From a virus, in IMG/VR virus record IMGVR_UViG_3300035698_008372, positions 1 to 64,000 of that record: a stretch of 64,000 nt of DNA. One strand, given 5' to 3'. Shown here piece after piece: positions 3,597-32,487 of this stretch; position 1 is the stretch's first letter, and each line of letters begins with the position of its first letter. Below the pieces are notes generated by a model. The model was not told the origin of the DNA. It searched no databases and worked only from the letters and a program-made list of their open reading frames with translations. Both the position numbers and the translations under genes were made by a program.

Positions 3597-3754
3597 ATGA
3601 AACTGTCCGATTTGAGGCGTTTAAAAATAAGAAAGTAATTGAAATAGATGTGTTCCATAAAGATTATGGTACTATTTATAAGAAACTAAGTGCAAGTGAT
3701 AAACGCACTGTGGACGCGGCGATAGGCGGTCCTGGTGAAAAAGGAGCATACTAA
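3597..3754 (+). pseudogene. Small frameshifted ORF (MKLSDL start, body in the -1 frame)
   Basis: AGGAG then ATG at 3597; this frame stops after 13 codons, but the -1 frame from 3614 is open to TAA 3754, abutting the next start at 3756. Confidence 0.4.
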
Positions 3755-6483: not shown

Positions 6484-8070
6484 ATGATGAATGAAGCACA
6501 AAAACTAAAAGAGGCGATGAAGAAAGAGTACATTAAGTGTGCTGTTGATCCCACGTACTTTATGAGAAAATACTGCATCATTCAGCATCCGCAACGTGGT
6601 AAGGTAAATTTTAACCTTTATGATTTTCAGGCCGATACTCTAGAAAAAATAGTAAGCAATAATTACACTGTAATTCTCAAAGCTAGACAACTGGGATTAT
6701 CCACATTAACTGCCGGATATGCCCTTTGACTAATGACATTCAATACGGATAAGGATATTTTGGTTATCGCTACGAAACAGGATAAGGCCAAAAACTTGGT
6801 AACAAAAGTAAGGGTTATGCATGCAAATTTACCAAATTGATTAAAATCCACCTGTACGGAGGATAACAGACTTTCAATGAGTTATAAGAATGGCTCAAGA
6901 ATTAAAGCAGATACATCATCCCCAGACGCTGCACGATCAGAATCACTATCATTATTGATTCTCGATGAAGCGGCATTCATCCCAAAAATTAACGATATAT
7001 GGACAGCAGCTCAACAGACATTAAGTACTGGTGGCCGCTGTATTGCATTGAGTACACCAAATGGTGCTACTGGATGGTTTCACGATATATGGGTTGGTGC
7101 GGAGAATAAGGTTAATTCATTTTTTCCAATATATCTTCACTGGACGGTACACCCAGAACGTGATCAAGTATGGCGTGACAAGCAATCTTTGGATTTGGGC
7201 CCAGAATTGGCCGCCCAGGAATGCGATTGTTCGTTTATCACTTCTGGAAAATCGGTAGTCCCCGGTCCAATTATTCAATGGTATTTGGATAATTTAAAGG
7301 AAGAACCCATCGCACGAGAAGGTCTTGACGGTAACTATTGAAAATGGAAATATCCTGAAATTGGAGCATCCTATGTGGTTTCGGCAGACGTGGCACGTGG
7401 CGATGGTAAGGATTATTCCGCATTTCATGTAATTAATATTGACACATTGGAACAAGTGGCTGAGTATCAGGGGAAAGTCGATACTAAAGCATTTGGAGAT
7501 TTATGTGTAAATGTGGCTACAGAATATAATGACGCACTGTTAATTATTGAAAATGCCAATATTGGTTGGGGTTCGATTCAACAGGTTGTTGACAGGGATT
7601 ATAAGAATTTATTTTACGCCACATCGGACTTGAAATATGTGGATGTAAAATCACAGATGACAAACAAATATTATAGAGACGATCGAAAAATGGTGGCAGG
7701 GTTTTCAACTACTAGCAGAACCAGACCAATGATCGTGGAAAAACTGGTGGAATATTTTAGAGATAAAACCGCAATAGTACATTCCAATAGACTAATAAAT
7801 GAGTTATTTTCATTTGTATATGGTCCTGCTTCGGCCGCACAGGCCGATTATGGTGCTAATGACGATTTAGTAATGAGTTTCGCGATAGCCCTATGGGTAC
7901 GTGATACTGCAATTCGTCTAAGAACTGAGGGAATGACTCAGCAGAAAAATTTAATGAAGCAAATGGTGGATTATCAACCAGTTTATAGCGAAAGTAGTAA
8001 TAAAAATGATTCATGGAATTGGGACGACTCACATGGGAATAATGTTGGGTTGGACTGGTTGCTGGATTAA
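6484..8070 (+). CDS. terL: Terminase large subunit (gp17-like), 3 in-frame TGA (6727, 6838, 7339)
   Basis: KARQLGLST Walker A variant, LILDEAAF Walker B, STPNG, ADVARGDGKDYS, DDLVMS; three track ORFs join in frame. Confidence 0.95.
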
Positions 8071-8087: not shown

Positions 8088-11000
8088 ATGGCTGAAGGTA
8101 AATTAGCACGGAATTTAAAAAGATTATTTTCTGGAACCGTTATTGTTCGCAATATTGGTGGTAGAAAATTAAAGGTTGTGGACACGGACAATGTCCAATC
8201 TACTGTGAATAGAAATTTCATGGATAGATATACTAGATTGTACTCATCAATGGGTGGGTCAACTGGTCGTGCTATACAATTCTATCAAGCTGGGCAGAGA
8301 ATGGCCCTTTTCAAAGATTACGAACAAATGGATGCGGATGCTATTATCTCATCCGCACTAGACATTTATGCAGATGAATGTTTGGCAGGCGATACCATAA
8401 TTCCATTATTGGATGGTCAAAAATTGACTTTAAAAGAAATGTTTGATAATAATATGACCGATTTTTGGTTGTATGGTATTGACGATGGTGGAAATTTTAA
8501 ACCGTCTATGGGTAGATTTGTGGCATATAAGGGAAAATCCGATGTTTATAAAATAACATTGGAAGATGGTACGATATTGAAATCCACTGGAAATCATAGG
8601 TGATTGGATTCAAATAATAAATTGAAATATACTGAAAATTTTAAAGTCGGGGATGGAATTTATGCTCTTTCTACTAAAATAAGTGAACATAAAAATATGC
8701 CTGGATATGAAATGATAAAAAATGGAGAAAATTTCGAATTTGTTCATCGGATGGTTGCTAAAAATAATAAAATTTTATTGGAAGAACGAAAGCATAAAAC
8801 GGATAAGGCTGTAATACACCATAGTTCATTTGATAAGAGAAATAATTCTCCGGAACATTTAATTTGGCTTAATTCCAAAGAGCATTGGCAAATGCATGCT
8901 GATTTTAACAAACAATTGTGGTCAGATGATACCAAAACTCATGCATATAAAGACAAAATTAAGGAAGCACATGAGGCATATTGAACACCCGAACTTAAAC
9001 ATCAAGTAGCTATACGCCAGTCTAAATTTATGAAAGACTGAATGTCGAAAACTACTGACAATGAAAGAAAAGTTTTATTTGGGAATTATGGTGAAAAAAA
9101 TGGAATGTATGGCAACGGCGAATTGTTGTCTGGTAATAAAAATGGTAGATGAATATCATCAATGAATAGAATTAGTAAGTATGATTTAAATACACTAGTT
9201 GATTTATTAATGAAAGAGTATACTGGTGGTAAAAATAGCAGTGCTAGAAATATTTTATCTAATCACTACGATTTTAATCGTTCGGAATTTTTAAAATTTT
9301 CCAAAATGGTATGTGAATATTATGGAATATCAAATTTAAAATCATTACCACGTGAATATTATTTTGAGAAAAATAAACATTTATTATCTGACATGAGATT
9401 AAAAATATCCAAATTCAATAAAAATCCAAAGCGAAATTTTAATTTATTGTGCAATAATATAGGGACTACTAAAATAGAGTTTAATCATATATTAAATAAA
9501 GCTGGATATCATTCTTTTGGTGATTTTGCGGATTCTTCTAATCATAAAATTATATCTATTGAGAAATTGCCTGAATTGGAAGATGTATATGATATTATTG
9601 ATGTGGATGATACTAACATTTATGCGATTGAATCGGTCGATGGATCGAAAATATATACTCACAATTCTACAATGAAATCCGAATATGGTGATGTTATTGA
9701 GATTACCGCTGAAGATGAGGGTGTAAGGGAAGTATTACATAACTTGTATTATGACATTTTGAATGTTGAATTCAACTTGTGGCCATGAGTTAGAAATATG
9801 TGTAAGTATGGGGATTTCTTCCTGCATTTACAGATAGATGACAATTATGGTATATACAATGTTATTCCAATGTCGGCCTATGATGTGGTTAGACTTGAAG
9901 GATTAGACCCAGCAAAACCAAATGAGGTTAAATTTCAATTGGGCGAGGGTGAAACCAGACACATGGCTAAGGGTAATGATGAAACCGAGATGCTGGAAGA
10001 TTATGAGGTTGCACACTTTAGACTACATTCAGATTCAAACTATTTGCCATACGGTAAAAGTATGATTGAAGGTGGCCGTAAAACGTGGAAACAACTAACA
10101 CTAATGGAAGATGCCATGCTGATTCACAGAATCATGAGGGCCCCTGAAAAGAGAGTATTCAAATTGGATATTGGTAATATTGCTCCAAATGAGGTTGAAC
10201 CATTCATGAAATCGGTTATTTCCAAAATGAAAAAAACCCCAGTTATGGATGAACAGACTGGTGAATATAATTTAAGATACAACATGCAGAATCTCACTGA
10301 GGACTTTTTCCTTCCAGTGCGTGGTTCTGATAGTGGAACTGAGATTGACACATTATCTGGGTTGTCTTATGAGTCCACCGATGATATAGAATATTTGAAG
10401 AACAAAATGATGGCGGCTTTGAAAGTACCTAGGGCATTCTTGGGATACGATGAGGCTCTAAACAGTAAATCAACATTGGCAGCAGAAGATGTGAGATTTG
10501 CAAAAACAATCGAGCGAATCCAAAAGGTGATAGTTGACGTTTTGATGAAAATTGGTGTGGTTCACCTTTATACTCAAGGGTATAGGGATGAGAGAATGCT
10601 TAATTTTGATCTTAGCTTAACTAACTCGTCTATCATGTTTGAAGAGGAACGGTTGGAATTATTGAACAACAAAATTTCAGCGGCTAGTTCACTTCTACAG
10701 GACGATTTGGCACCTACAGATTGGATATATAATAATATCTTCAAATTCGGAAAAGCCGAACAAGAACAAATCAGACTGGAACTATTAAAAGACAAAAAAC
10801 GCAAGTTCCGTTATCAACAGATTGAAGATGAGGGAAATGATCCATTGAAATCTGGTGAAGCTGTTGGTACACAAGGTGCCATGATGGCCGCCGGCGGGGA
10901 AGAGGGCGGCGGACCCCCACATCCAGTTCCAGGTGGCGCACAGGAAGAAAATTATGGTGATTATGGAGAAGATAATGAAGCTCCTGCAGGTGGCCATCCA

Positions 11001-11264
11001 GGTGGTGGCCGACCTAAAGAAGGGCCTAAGTATGGTAAGGATAGTTCCGCTACCGGCCGTGATCCACTAGGAAAACATGACATGAAAAAGGCCAGTAGCA
11101 ATAGTCCTAAATACGGAAAAACTTTATCACTCTCACATTACGCGTCTTTAAAGACAAGATTGGGTGAAAAGTTCGTAGAAAAGAATCAAAAAATATTAAA
11201 AGAATCTGATGATATAGAAAAAGAATATAAAGATGATATTTCTAGCTCAGAGGACGCTGAATAA
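8088..11264 (+). CDS. Portal protein (gp20-like) with intein, 5 in-frame TGA (8601, 8982, 9039, 9150, 9786)
   Basis: IISSALDIYADE, KYGDFFL, LMEDAMLIHRIMRAPEKRVF, EDFFLPVRG, DIEYLK..LKVP; single frame with TGA read-through. Confidence 0.95.
8379..9665 (+). mobile_element. Intein (429 aa) with HNH homing endonuclease in the portal gene
   Basis: ADE|CLAGDT N-terminus, block B STGNHR, block F DVYDI, C-terminal THN|S; VHRMVA...IHH...DKRNNSPEHL HNH; GEKNGMYG NUMOD3-like motif. Confidence 0.92.
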
Positions 11265-21879: not shown

Positions 21880-23496
21880 ATGAGTAAAAGCCTACAAACA
21901 ATCGAAAAACTAATGGGTGGCTATTCTCCAGTTCGTAAGAGATTAGAGGAGTCTAAGGCTCTTGTAGCAAAGTGGGAACCCACTGGACTACTTGAAGGTC
22001 TTAGTACAGAACATGATGTAAACAATATGGCAGTGTTGCTTGAAAACCAAGCACGTCAGCTTATTGATGAATCATCTAAAACTGGAACCGCCTCCAACTC
22101 TGAAGAATGGAGCGGCGTAGCCCTTCCACTAGTTCGTAGAATATTTGGTGAATTAGCTGCACAGGAATTCGTTTCTGTACAACCTATGAACCTGCCTTCA
22201 GGACTTATTTTCTATCTAGATTTTAAGTATTCTACAGCACAACCAGGATTCGATTCAGGGTCCGACATTTATGGTAACACAAGTTCATCTGGCGATGCAA
22301 CTGGTGGTCTTTACGGCGCAGGTCGTTTTGGATATACCTCAAATGATGTATCAGTAGCATCAACTTCCTTCGTAACCGCATCCGTGGTTTGGGGTGATGT
22401 TGATTTCGAAGCAGACTTGTCTGCATCAGTCGCTGCTGGAACACTTCTTAAAATTACCATTCCAAAGGCACAGGCAGCTGCTGCTGATTGGGACGCTGTA
22501 CGTTCATTCGTAATTAGTGGTTCTGGTACTTCAGAAGTAACAACACTGTATCCCGCTTACAGTAAAATAAGTGGTACAAACGCTATCTTTATTATTGATC
22601 CCGCGCTCGCACCTTCTGGTAGTGGAACTCAATTCACAATCAAATATAGCAAACAACCTACTGACATCACTCGCGGTGATTTCGAACAGACCAGTTTCAC
22701 GACTCCTGCTCCTAATTCAGCTGATGATATCGGTATCCCTGAGATCGACATTCAGATGCGTTCGATTCCGATCGTCGCAAAGACCAGAAAGTTAAAAGCT
22801 ATCTGGACACCTGAACTAGCTCAGGATTTAAACGCATATCATAGCGTTGATGCAGAAGCAGAATTAACTGCTATGTTGTCTGAATATGTAACAATGGAAA
22901 TTGACTTGGAAATTCTTGACATGTTGCGTGCAAACGCTTCTGCTAGGACTGAGTACTGGTCAGCAAAGATTGCTAACGAATATAACGCTTCCACAGGTTT
23001 ATTCGAAGAGACATCTGCTAACGCTTCTGCTTATGTTAAGGGAACGTGGTATCAGACTTTGGGTAATAAAATCCAAAGAGTTTCTGCAGCAATTCACCAA
23101 AAAACCCTCCGTGGTGGTGCAAACTTCCTAGTTGTTTCTCCGGAAACTGCTACGATTATCGAAAGTATTCCGGGTTATGCCGCTGATACTACCGGTGATG
23201 CATCTATCACTTCATTCGCTATGGGTGTTCAGAAGGTTGGTATGTTGAATAACAGGTTCACTGTTTACAAGAACCCTTACATGCACGAAAACGTCATTCT
23301 TGTCGGTTTCCGTGGAAGTAATTTCTTGGAAACTGGTGCTGTTTATGCTCCATACGTTCCACTGATCATGACACCACTAGTGTATGATCCAGTAAATTTC
23401 ACCCCGCGTAAGGGTGTCATGACGCGTTATGCGAAGAAAATGGTCCGGCCCGAATTTTATGGCACGATTGTTGTCGCTGACACGAATTTGGTCTAG
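21880..23496 (+). CDS. Major capsid protein (gp23-like)
   Basis: LLENQ, VSVQPMNLPSGLIF, TRKLKA.WTPELAQDL.A.H..DAEAEL, YAPYVPL, FTPRKGVMTRY. Confidence 0.97.
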   Translation: MSKSLQTIEKLMGGYSPVRKRLEESKALVAKWEPTGLLEGLSTEHDVNNMAVLLENQARQLIDESSKTGTASNSEEWSGVALPLVRRIFGELAAQEFVSVQPMNLPSGLIFYLDFKYSTAQPGFDSGSDIYGNTSSSGDATGGLYGAGRFGYTSNDVSVASTSFVTASVVWGDVDFEADLSASVAAGTLLKITIPKAQAAAADWDAVRSFVISGSGTSEVTTLYPAYSKISGTNAIFIIDPALAPSGSGTQFTIKYSKQPTDITRGDFEQTSFTTPAPNSADDIGIPEIDIQMRSIPIVAKTRKLKAIWTPELAQDLNAYHSVDAEAELTAMLSEYVTMEIDLEILDMLRANASARTEYWSAKIANEYNASTGLFEETSANASAYVKGTWYQTLGNKIQRVSAAIHQKTLRGGANFLVVSPETATIIESIPGYAADTTGDASITSFAMGVQKVGMLNNRFTVYKNPYMHENVILVGFRGSNFLETGAVYAPYVPLIMTPLVYDPVNFTPRKGVMTRYAKKMVRPEFYGTIVVADTNLV

Positions 23497-23531: not shown

Positions 23532-23558
23532 AAACCCCTAGAAATAGGGGTTTTTTTT
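23532..23558 (+). terminator. Intrinsic terminator after the major capsid gene
   Basis: AAACCCCTA-GAAA-TAGGGGTTT plus T run. Confidence 0.85.
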
Positions 23559-23629
23559 GCGCAAAAACGAAAATAAATTATCTTTTGGGCACCTTCCCTA
23601 CTATTTATAGTAAAGAGGAATAAAGACCA

Positions 23630-24520
23630 ATGAGTAAAATAACAGAACATAGTGAGTGGAAAAGGAATTGCCCAGATTGTGGGGATACCCTATATTATAG
23701 TTGCAAACGATACCTAAATCGGGCCGCGGATAATAAATCGGTGTGCCGTTCATGCCGATCACTGCCGGATTCAATGAAAGAGAAACTTTCAGAATATTGG
23801 ACTGGCCGCAAACGTGAAAATTACGCTAAAGTTCATCCGTGGACAACGGGACCCACAGAGTGGAGAAATGATTGCCCTGATTGCGGAAAAGAACGGTATT
23901 TTTCATCAAAATTCAACATGAAAAATTCTATCAAAAAGGGTACAATCTGTAATAGCTGCTCCACAATAAAATTTAAAAAGGGATTTTGGGATGGGAAATG
24001 TACAGACGCTCAAATCAAACAAATGAGAGCCACCAAAGCCGGCTTCACGGGCTGGGATGAGTACAAACTCAAATATCCAGTTAAGAAGCAATACCAGCTT
24101 GAGGTTCGTCGCCTGACGCGGCAACAGCCGCTACAGGAACTCCCAGGATACGACAGGTTGCAATCCGATCGTGGGCTGAATGGGGTAGAGGGCGCGTACC
24201 AACTGGATCATGTGGTGTCTATAGACAGTGGTTGGCAATTGGGGATACCTCCAGAGTATATTGCACACATCTCAAATTTGAAGGTTATTACATGGGCAGA
24301 AAATATCAGTAAAGGCAAGGACTTCCTGGTAGGCTATAAAGGACAAACGACAATGGGAGATGGTATTGTTAATGTTCCACATGTGCCGCTATTCGGTGGA
24401 TTCATCGAGGGCGATTTCCCGCCGACTGGAAGCTGGCTAGAGGACACCGAGTATCTCAAGCAACAGATAATAAGTGCAATGGGTGTGCCAAAGGAATATT
24501 TAACAAGAGGAGACGAATAA
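23630..24520 (+). CDS. HNH endonuclease-like protein with zinc ribbons and C-terminal capsid/portal-like segments
   Basis: CPDCG twice; YQLDH...SNLKVITWAENISK; see findings for the C-terminus. Confidence 0.75.
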   Translation: MSKITEHSEWKRNCPDCGDTLYYSCKRYLNRAADNKSVCRSCRSLPDSMKEKLSEYWTGRKRENYAKVHPWTTGPTEWRNDCPDCGKERYFSSKFNMKNSIKKGTICNSCSTIKFKKGFWDGKCTDAQIKQMRATKAGFTGWDEYKLKYPVKKQYQLEVRRLTRQQPLQELPGYDRLQSDRGLNGVEGAYQLDHVVSIDSGWQLGIPPEYIAHISNLKVITWAENISKGKDFLVGYKGQTTMGDGIVNVPHVPLFGGFIEGDFPPTGSWLEDTEYLKQQIISAMGVPKEYLTRGDE

Positions 24521-24824
24521 AATGGCTGGATTGGATTGGATTTCGAAAAAGGATTTTAAACTAACAACAATACAGAGAAAATTTATTGATAAATTGTTGG
24601 AAAATGATATATCAGCGATCAGTACAAAATATAAGGGTGAACTATTTATTGTACTTGAAAGTGAAAAAGATGGAACACAAAAAGTTAAACATGATCATGT
24701 GGCTCTTGAATTTTCGGATGCGAGTCGTGTATTTAAACTAACCACTAAAGATTTTGATACCATTCAGACTAGATATGGTAAATATTATATAAGATTTAAT
24801 AATGAAAATAAATTAAAATAACGG

Positions 24825-24853: not shown

Positions 24854-26117
24854 CAGGTATGATAAGAGAGGACAACCAAACCGTGAAAACCCACAAAAAA
24901 ATTAAAATTGAAACTGGCGTCTATAAATATAGGGGCTTTTGGTGTTGTGTCAATGAGGAAACTCCCACTGGTTATTGGGGCAGATGGTCAGCTTCCACTG
25001 GAATCATCACTGATTCATTGAAAAATTGTATGAGACAAATAGACGGGAAATTGGACAAATAAATGAAAGAATACCAAATTCCCAAAGAATTACAATCGGA
25101 AACGGATACATTCGAATTTTTTAGAAAAGTACGATTGTTGTATCCAGCGTTGAAAAATAAAAATTTAAGATATGATAAATATAAAAAAACCGTAACTGTT
25201 TTGAGAAGAAAAAGAAAGTAGAATTATGTTTAAAGTTGGATTGTATATGACAATATATGGGACGGGTATGGTATTGTTAGGCGTATCGTTGCCATTGGGT
25301 ATTGCTATGGGTTTGGTTGGGGTATTTGGCGTTTATTATGAATATGACAATAAGGGTTAATTAAATGAAAGCTGAATTTTTAAAGGAATTGAAAGCATTA
25401 TTGGAAAAATATGATGCTTCCCTAGATGTCGAAGAACGTAACGATGGTAGTTGGTATCCCATTACAGAATTGGAAATATATTTCGATAAAACTGGTGACA
25501 GGATTGAATTGGCTAAATATAATGACGCCAATTCTCTTGAAATAGAAATAAAAAACGAATTGGACAAATAATGAAAGTTAGACAACAAATAGTACCGATG
25601 CATAGGGGAGTTCAATATTCAGATAAGGTGCATGACGTTGATGCGTTTAGTGAATTGACTCAAACATTTATACGGAGTGCTTTTGATAGTGATGAGGGCG
25701 ATGTGATTCCAAAGCGTGTTATTACTGAGTATGAAGATCGTATGGTTATTTTTGAAAGGCTGGACGATTAAATGAAAATTAAAAAAGACGAAAAGTTATG
25801 GATGGTTCCAACTCGGTATTGGGAAACAACTGAGCCGGAATCATGTATTGGGCTCACCGATGACGTTTATAGTGGTAAACATGCCTATGTGTTTTTAGAG
25901 CATTATGGTTATAATGCGTATGTTAAAATTGAAGACTTATTTCATATTAAAGAAAATGCCATTAAAGTAGCTGAAGCGCGGGCCATTATAAAAGATGCAA
26001 ATTTTAATGATGAAGGAAGTGAAATTGATATTGATGATTTCATTGAACAAGTCAGAGCGAGTGGATAATTAAATGGATGCTGCTACAGAAAAATAATGAT
26101 TTATAAACGAAATTAAT

Positions 26118-26142
26118 AGCCCCAGCAATGGGGCTTTTTTTT
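26118..26142 (+). terminator. Intrinsic terminator
   Basis: AGCCCCA-GCAA-TGGGGCT plus T run. Confidence 0.85.
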
Positions 26143-27267
26143 GTGCTAAAATAAATCGGGGTTTTGAGAGTGCCCATTACTATTTATAAAAAAAGGAATA
26201 GAATAATGGACTATAATAAAAAATACATATTCATATCAGATGGAACTTGGTTTGATAAGGGTACTGAATGTACCGTTGAAGATGGAGATTCCATGTGGTC
26301 GTATGGGATATGGAACTATGGTACTGCTAAAAAGGAATTTACCCTTGAAGAAATGAATGAGCACAGAGGTGATATTGGCGGCATATTCAGAGGGATTAGA
26401 ACATGTGAAAATTCTGCAGCTGAAGGTGGCAGGCCGGTTGGTGAAAAATATGATGATGGTGAAGTATGTGGTATGGATGAATTTGAGATAAGGAGAATAT
26501 AGATGAAGTTTAATAGAAATGACATGGTAAAATGGAACGGCGAGCTATATGAGTTTGGGTATTATAATGCTAATAGGGCTATTATATACAGACCCGGTGA
26601 GACTGATAAGGACAATAGGTATATTACAGTATTGGTAGAGGAGTTACAGGCTTCAGGCAAGCAATTGTTGAAGGGCAACGAATAGGTGAGCAACAATAAA
26701 TACAGAAAATTGGTTGCCAAAGGCCGCGGCGAATGGATAAAAAAGTGGTTCGGCGGCTCGACTGAAACCGATCCAGTAATAGATGGTAATACAGTGCCAT
26801 ACGAAGAATTAATAGTCGGATTCAGAAGATTTTCGACTGATCAGGAAATATTTTTTAATAAACCATTTGGAGAAGATAGATAATGAGTAAAAAGGTTACA
26901 TTAATTAGTAAGAACTATTATGCCGAAGAATTGGGTGACATTGAACAAGATGTCAGTGATGCGATTCAAGATTCAAAGGTTATGGCAGATGATACGGATG
27001 AACACGGATTTACCAAAGGTCACTTGACTGTTATAATAGAATATATTCCAGAGAGTGAGGACAAACCATGCAAGTCATATATGGGGGTTGGCCCAGGACA
27101 TCAGAGCAGGTTGCAATGTGAGGAACAGGGCACGCATGTAATCCATAGGGCATATTATGATTATGGTGGATATACCGCATATTGGAAAGGCAACGAAGCC
27201 TTTTCGGGATTTTTTGATGATGTCCCCGGTAATGGTGATTTGGAAGTTGAATATTACGAGGAACATA

Positions 27268-32046: not shown

Positions 32047-32487
32047 ATGACAAATAATTATATGGTATCGGGTAGTGTGGGGGGTTTCTACGGCGGGTCT
32101 GTTCCATCTGGGTGGGTGCAAATGCAATACGATGTGCCGAAACCATTCACAGAATGGGAATCTAAAATTGGAAAATCTAACAATTGGTGAAATGGTGTAA
32201 ATGCAATCCCAGAATTTAAATCCAAGATACCAAGAAAAAACCCGTGGCTGGATATGTGGTATCCAAAGGTAACCATCGCGATGGTTGGTTTGCCGGCTGT
32301 AAGGAATGCATTTCCTCAACAAATAGCTCAACAAATAGTCAGTGTTCAACCTATGGGAACCCCAAAAGGGGTGACATACTATATGGATGAAATTTATGAA
32401 AAAAATAAATATAAACGGGCGTGGAATAAATTCAAACGATTATGCCAATTTGGGACAACCAAACTATTTATTGGAAAGCAAAAATAA
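32047..32487 (+). CDS. Protein containing a major-capsid (Gol-region) segment, 1 in-frame TGA (32188)
   Basis: ATG 32047 lies 2 nt after the previous stop and is in frame with track ORF 32254..32487; 18/35 ungapped identity to this phage's MCP. Confidence 0.65.

Follow-up and report, generated by a model that had tools for sequence, protein, structure and literature searches.

The window analysed here, a 64,000-nt stretch of the IMG/VR virus record IMGVR_UViG_3300035698_008372, carries on its forward strand the major capsid protein (MCP) gene g23 (21880-23496; 538 aa; Pfam Gp23, 1e-75) and, directly 3' of it, a 296-aa ORF for a free-standing nuclease (23630-24520, forward strand). Between them lies a cassette of terminator, promoter and ribosome-binding site (RBS) that starts with a terminator hairpin at 23532-23553, extends to about 23629 and recurs at 26115-26207. 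The cassette, comprising the terminator, GCGCAAAAA..., CTATTTATA and an RBS, is thus present twice (23532-23630 and 26115-26207), and its two copies flank the endonuclease gene together with seven tiny AT-rich ORFs, the first of which (24522-24821, forward strand) has a G+C content of 27.6%. The post-g23 cassette copy of two relatives (L053 and L058) is closer in appearance to the second copy in the window, and short repeats related to the cassette occur at many intergenic sites (near 3752, 5190, 13601, 18958, 19736, 37306 and 37790). At the 3' end of the endonuclease ORF (24506-24524, read from the sequence), a Shine-Dalgarno motif (AGAGGAG) lies within the last codons, followed by the TAA stop (24518-24520) and the ATG of the next gene at 24522. 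The portal gene g20 lies upstream on the same strand (8088-11264; phrog_213, Pfam Portal_T4) and forms a single frame of 1058 aa only under code 4, in which TGA stands for Trp; this frame includes five TGA codons and an intein of ~430 aa with an HNH nuclease (CLAGDT...IYTHN|S). TGA encodes Trp in this genome, and the terminase gene (6484-8070) needs three such codons.

Residues 1-229 of the endonuclease ORF (23630-24316) constitute its core, which combines two CxxC...CxxC zinc ribbons (C14-C42 and C82-C110) with an HNH-like domain (D193 H194 ... N216 ... N225 K228). D193 H194, N216, N225 and K228 are invariant across 45 homologues, and the arrangement is that of the HNH (beta-beta-alpha-metal) superfamily, in which a D/H-H motif with the catalytic His is followed by a structural Asn and a metal-ligand Asn/His. 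No curated HNH profile from Pfam or NCBIfam matched the ORF at E values up to 0.1, and its sole profile match was phrog_5104, a family with no assigned function. The assignment as a nuclease is based on the invariant DH...N...N motif and a weak fold match, and not on a Pfam HNH model. The nuclease of the window retains every invariant residue, and the genome that carries it is that of an intact phage in which complete g20 and g23 genes are found elsewhere. We regard the ORF as a putative free-standing homing endonuclease of an undescribed family whose home is directly after g23.

All nine family members sampled (9/9), from diverse contigs, lie directly behind a Gp23 gene and are followed by differing genes; no family member was found at g20. 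The relatives with the closest MCPs (L053-L058) carry a GIY-YIG endonuclease at the post-g23 site, and their homology to the window ends at 23567, while Flavobacterium phage immuto has no endonuclease after g23. Such sporadic occupancy, with one site holding another or no occupant in relatives, is characteristic of free-standing homing endonucleases. In T4, segD is located between genes 23 and 24 (PMC2988022), and in the Dickeya phage LIMEstone1 F-LimVII follows g23. Judged by gene order, the site after g23 is a classic endonuclease hot spot. The GIY-YIG endonuclease of the closest-MCP relatives is a 395-aa protein fused to a P-loop domain (L053 5588-6775; L002 95-1366). Tandem endonuclease genes after g23 were also observed, in that the ORF next to the endonuclease ORF on one contig (L001 1189-1290) starts in the manner of a NUMOD/HNH_3-type endonuclease (...GEFTWIDC...). 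An HNH_3 gene occurs two genes further on in two other contigs (L004 and L005). The family resembles T4-type seg/mob endonucleases in joining a nuclease to a DNA-binding module, in having its own promoter and RBS between conserved genes, and in its sporadic presence, with other endonuclease families replacing it at the same site. It differs in its two zinc ribbons and HNH-like DH-N-N domain, which matches phrog_5104 and no Pfam model, and both cleavage and homing by this family are putative. A further difference concerns the window ORF itself, which has no stop codon of its own and bears a composite tail. As a homing endonuclease that stands free at the g23 hot spot, the gene is of a known kind; what is new is the undescribed family and the unusual read-through tail.

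In 62 of 65 endonuclease homologues the protein has its canonical end within a few residues of position ~229. The stop after ...ENI(S/K)KG is missing only in three closest relatives, namely the window protein (P0001) and two others (P0002 and P0003, the latter encoded on contig L001). In the window the core residues ...ENISKG end at 24316, and as no stop follows residue 229, translation continues for 67 residues into the adjoining DNA; the corresponding extensions are 75 aa in P0003 and 190 aa in P0002. DNA homology with the P0002 and P0003 loci ends exactly at 24316, and past the common ...AAG GGC all three diverge. The P0002 extension is a P-loop domain that in other phages follows a GIY-YIG endonuclease; the linker GKFVKKSENAERSRE stands before the P-loop domain in one of these two contexts and after it in the other (the GIY-YIG fusion and the P0002 tail). 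TGA read-through as a source of the window extension was ruled out, there being neither TGA nor Trp at the junction. The tail of P0003 has weak similarity to that of the window (p 0.005-0.02) and no significant match to gp23 profiles; given that the cores of the two proteins are only 54% identical, even this weak likeness hints at some constraint. The window tail is missing from the closest relative, P0002, and from all members with the canonical end. Sequence comparison thus shows both the 24316 breakpoint and the absence of the tail pieces from these relatives.

The tail comprises two short pieces separated by a spacer, all on the forward strand. A gp23-like piece (residues 230-255, 24317-24394, KDFLVGYKGQTTMGDGIVNVPHVPLF) is followed by a 14-residue spacer (residues 256-269, 24395-24436, GGFIEGDFPPTGSW; 62% G+C) that matches nothing, and then by a gp20-like piece (residues 270-293, 24437-24508, LEDTEYLKQQIISAMGVPKEYLTR). 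As initially annotated, LVGYKG...VPL (24326-24391) aligns ungapped and in the ORF frame with the MCP segment LVGFRGSNFLETGAVYAPYVPL (23299-23364, forward strand; 10/22 identical), and EDTEYL...EYL (24440-24502) aligns likewise with a portal segment within g20 (10380-10442, forward strand; 9/21 identical). Both counterparts, initially described as highly conserved motifs, belong to the best conserved blocks, the MCP segment being the best conserved block of the gp23 C-terminus in an alignment of 17 sequences. With the portal of Mel-JY01 the gp20-like piece shares 12/22 identical residues. The spacer scored no better than shuffled sequences against gp23 and gp20 and has no relative in the phage genome.

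Both resemblances proved significant under shuffling. Pairwise comparison with the phage's own proteins gave p ~0.001 for each, and two custom profiles drawn from public phages and related contigs, one of gp23 C-termini (17 diverse sequences) and one of gp20 mid-regions (13 sequences, likewise diverse), scored residues 230-255 at 18.3 bits (E 9e-8) and residues 270-293 at 14.8 bits (E 9e-7), scores reached by none of 3000 shuffled tails, the highest of which attained ~7 bits. With the window's own clade dropped from the profiles the signal stayed, at 17.3 bits for gp23 and 10.6 bits for gp20. In six-frame scans of the 140-kb genome and 14 related loci (6180 pieces) for short partial matches, the endonuclease ORF was the top off-target of both profiles, being the best non-MCP match (E 0.0019) and the best non-portal match (E 0.044). 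In the reverse direction, a tblastn search with the tail against the phage's own 140-kb genome returned the portal (E 0.010) and MCP (E 0.018) motifs as its top two off-self matches, with noise starting at E 0.82. Among Pfam families only Portal_T4 matched the tail (12.5 bits over 25 residues, aligned to profile positions 283-307, which are the homologous ones; library-wide E 0.061), and this score is below the gathering cut-off of 22.9 bits for the T4 gp20 portal family (PF07230), leaving the tail outside it. Pfam Gp23 (PF07068) reported nothing on the tail, of which only 26 residues are gp23-like, and the tail does not belong to that family either.

It could be argued that one or both resemblances arose by chance and that the tail is simply translated spacer DNA. 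The pieces are only 22-26 residues each, each piece is at E ~0.3 when the MCP and portal proteins are compared pairwise with the phage genome by tblastn, the portal match stands at E 0.044-0.061 after wide multiple testing, and an exhaustive phmmer search of the tail against 1.84 billion representative proteins found no MCP or portal but only eukaryote-like mTERF repeat proteins, whose match to WLED...QQ looks equally good. Against this, the profile scores lie far above the maximum of the shuffles, the best off-target matches of two independent profiles fall within the same 68 residues, both pieces sit at homologous profile positions, and the reverse search is clear of noise. We consider coincidence very unlikely, and take the profile comparisons to have established the anatomy of the tail and the homology of its two pieces to gp23 and gp20. 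The mTERF proteins were rejected as spurious relatives because their scores are summed over 4-16 repeats. Tail residues 267-292 (24428-24505, PTGSWLEDTEYLKQQIISAMGVP) resemble the mTERF repeat of ~35 residues (PTVAWLEDVGLSRQQVAKVVAGFP), and the summing of repeats yields a misleading E of 1e-10. Two other sources for the tail were considered and rejected. One was a single decayed 3' end of g23 making up the entire tail. In its favour, 64 aa separate LVG from the stop in the tail and 66 aa in the MCP, and a weak tblastn match of the tail to Asteriusvirus MCPs (E 7) runs end to end; the second half of the tail, however, did no better than shuffles against 17 gp23 C-termini, while its score of 66 against portals was reached by 0/500 shuffles. 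The other, the vertex protein gp24, scored 30-34, which is noise level.

Both pieces are decayed as well as foreign in appearance. In leave-one-out comparisons genuine gp23 segments scored 32-45 bits and genuine gp20 segments 24-32 bits, about twice the scores of the tail pieces, in which near-invariant Tyr residues are substituted. The initial description of the pieces as diverged rather than recent copies agrees with a DNA identity of ~56% to the phage's own genes and with saturated third codon positions. By codon position, the MCP piece shares 14/13/10 of 22 nucleotides with the phage's own g23 and the portal piece 15/15/5 of 21 with its own g20 (Fisher p 0.0005), so that conservation is confined to first and second positions, third positions agreeing at the level expected by chance. 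This pattern suggests that most of the divergence accrued under protein constraint, as in functional foreign genes, and was followed by a shorter period of drift; as no donor sequence was found, a foreign origin is read from the codon-position patterns alone. The MCP piece also resembles the general GYKG consensus more than the GFRG of the phage's own protein. The G+C content of the tail, 47.5%, stands at the genome's 98.6th percentile; it is similar to that of the endonuclease core, whereas the downstream ORF has 27.6%. AlphaFold (AF2) assigned pLDDT <50 to residues 232-271 and, with intermediate confidence, predicted a helix at residues 269-284, over the portal-like piece. On T4 numbering (taken from PMC4493910 and L026, with PP01 numbering anchored on N291, M292, R295, K296, R338, K342 and T349), the portal piece corresponds to gp20 359-380, a region that spans stem helix alpha7 and the first part of the tunnel loop.

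Searches for relatives or donors of the tail were negative throughout. A tail-alone word search of 5.8 billion cluster proteins found no protein sharing it, no peptide-level relatives or donors were found in viral or metagenome contigs, and blastn against 50,697 phage records gave no DNA-level match. Eleven contigs from different samples differ by 8 SNPs in 5.9 kb with 0 in the tail, indicating a nearly clonal population. These results also bear on the suggestion that the pieces act as DNA, either as short homology arms to conserved g23 and g20 for spread into diverged phages or as look-alikes of the endonuclease target. Their position at the 3' boundary of the cassette would suit such a role, as would the fact that the upstream arm of the family is always g23. 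By its coordinates the g23 block is 266-331 bp upstream of where the endonuclease gene starts, and SegF and SegG, free-standing endonucleases of T4, cut at roughly such a distance. Distal cleavage sites of free-standing endonucleases are confirmed in general (PMC2988022, where a paper on a 'distant cleavage site' of SegG is cited by title). As the pieces share only 56% of their DNA sequence with g23 and g20 of this phage and have no DNA relative in the 50,697 phage records, present-day homology arms as initially proposed are unsupported; the lack of peptide-level relatives and of any family member at g20 likewise speaks against action at the DNA level, which we judge highly improbable.

We favour, as somewhat more likely than not, the explanation that the tail consists of foreign head-gene scraps that illegitimate break repair attached to the endonuclease gene at its 3' end and that are translated by read-through. 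Beyond 24316 the DNA would thus be a patchwork in which ~78 nt derive from the most conserved 3' block of a g23 gene, 42 nt are GC-rich DNA and ~72 nt derive from the block of a g20 gene that encodes the stem helix. The targets of free-standing endonucleases are conserved sequences within or beside essential genes close to their home, and in this phage group endonucleases target both g23, which has flanking endonucleases, and g20, which carries an HNH intein. During a mixed infection, illegitimate repair of the microhomology type may have joined broken ends or template switches at conserved g23 and g20 stretches of a diverged co-infecting relative to the 3' edge of the endonuclease gene, after which the captured pieces would have drifted. 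In T4-type homing, illegitimate break repair with microhomology junctions after long resection is documented (PMC2988022). Capture of broken ends would account for the origin of the pieces in conserved blocks, their position at a recombination boundary, their foreign and half-decayed look and their absence in relatives. An open frame would be maintained by the coding origin of the pieces, by the high G+C content of the spacer and by the end of the ORF, which overlaps the RBS of the next gene and leaves 1 nt before its ATG. Of the origins first proposed, scars from endonuclease movement fit best, given a tail absent from canonical relatives, an edge of homology at the tail start, the loss of about half the family signal, and a location at a hot spot; other endonuclease fusions and gp23 scraps in the same genome count in the same direction. 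Several findings count against it. Both pieces are in the frame and on the strand of the endonuclease, a coincidence of ~1 in 10 to 1 in 30 for junk; all three stop-less members have long open extensions; the tails of P0001 and P0003 are weakly similar; and the order g23-then-g20 with its unexplained spacer needs at least three joints. No donor sequence, microhomology or intermediate of the joining was identified. The repair mechanism, the foreign origin of the pieces and their presumed lack of function are accordingly what we infer from the end product.

Some of the same findings would be expected if the tail were a selected C-terminal module that poisons assembly or packaging of co-infecting relatives, acts as a decoy for a host sensor of capsid or portal proteins such as CapRel or Avs4, or carries the nuclease into proheads. 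Frame and strand are kept across the join and the frame is open, which for a random 68-codon frame is the case only ~2% of the time. The pieces are drawn from the best conserved blocks, the MCP piece is nearer the general consensus than the phage's own protein, and the P0003 tail is weakly similar. A second gp23 piece is, moreover, present in a small ORF at 32047-32487 (146 aa, one TGA), which contains a 45-residue copy of the N-terminal conserved block of gp23 in an otherwise unrelated protein and matches Pfam Gp23 at 30.3 bits, above the cut-off. Within it, 32284-32388 is 18/35 identical to MCP 80-114 (tblastn E 2.6e-6) and is a separate copy of the Gol-like region of this phage's MCP. The Gol region of gp23 that is sensed by Lit, N-terminal at T4 residues about 93-122, is not the region found in the tail, whose MCP piece corresponds to a block at the C-terminus (residues 473-494 of the window MCP, ~T4 436-457 counting back in L017). 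A precedent for a portal-derived inhibitor is the T4 gp20 peptide 288-311, which binds the terminase gp17 and inhibits packaging (as cited in PMC4493910). Like the proposed module it is a short dominant-negative peptide from the portal, but the tail piece corresponds to gp20 359-380, a different and largely buried element (the stem helix) rather than the gp17-binding clip peptide. The tail is, furthermore, absent from P0002 and all canonical members and unique among 5.8 billion proteins; near-invariant residues are gone and bit scores halved; the MCP piece and spacer are predicted to be disordered, and the near-clonal population offers no variation that could show selection. The idea of epitope decoys or assembly inhibitors thus found no positive evidence, as the pieces match neither the Gol region nor the gp17-binding peptide and most of the tail has no predicted fold. 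In-frame pieces, open extensions, the likeness to P0003 and the other gp23 pieces keep a functional tail in consideration, and we rate it as unlikely.

A broader version of this idea is that the phage expresses mimics of its competitors' head proteins, including the tail, the gp23 piece in ORF 32047-32487 and perhaps an ORF at 65553-65813. If so, the mimics could serve as dominant-negative poisons of assembly or packaging or as decoys for capsid and portal sensors, and the nuclease, with its tail, would link DNA cleavage in a rival's genome to sabotage of the rival's head assembly. We consider this quite unlikely. Were the tail functional, phages would have in it a weapon against other phages, or an anti-defence decoy, of a new kind and assembled from structural-protein motifs.

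If, as we favour, the tail is instead a recombination scar, the locus is a clean natural record of the remodelling of phage genomes by homing endonucleases. Its cassette, which lacks a stop codon and is defined to the base at its 3' edge, would have fused to a different sequence in each of three relatives, at a hot spot behind the capsid gene that is common to several endonuclease families. Scraps of the most conserved head genes would be scattered and translated elsewhere in the genome, which bears on annotation and on diversity surveys based on g23 or g20. The illegitimate break repair described for T4 (PMC2988022) offers a comparable route for joining unrelated short pieces of DNA at the edge of an endonuclease gene, and would be expected to start within conserved target sequences; here it is deduced solely from the end product. 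Barth et al. 2023 describe endonuclease genes clustered beside capsid, terminase and portal genes (PMC10448857), and in the parts of that paper drawn on here these islands likewise feature repeated zinc-finger DNA-binding domains and fusions with neighbouring sequence. The same parts concern shuffling of DNA-binding domains and whole-gene fusions, not tails of short head-gene pieces.

Two further ORFs (64431-65813) lie just beyond the window. The first, of 357 aa, has an HNH-endonuclease-like N-terminus joined to an RNA ligase domain, and the next ORF (65553-65813, 86 aa) contains a stretch weakly resembling the gp23 C-terminus (12.9 bits, E 0.023 in the six-frame scan).
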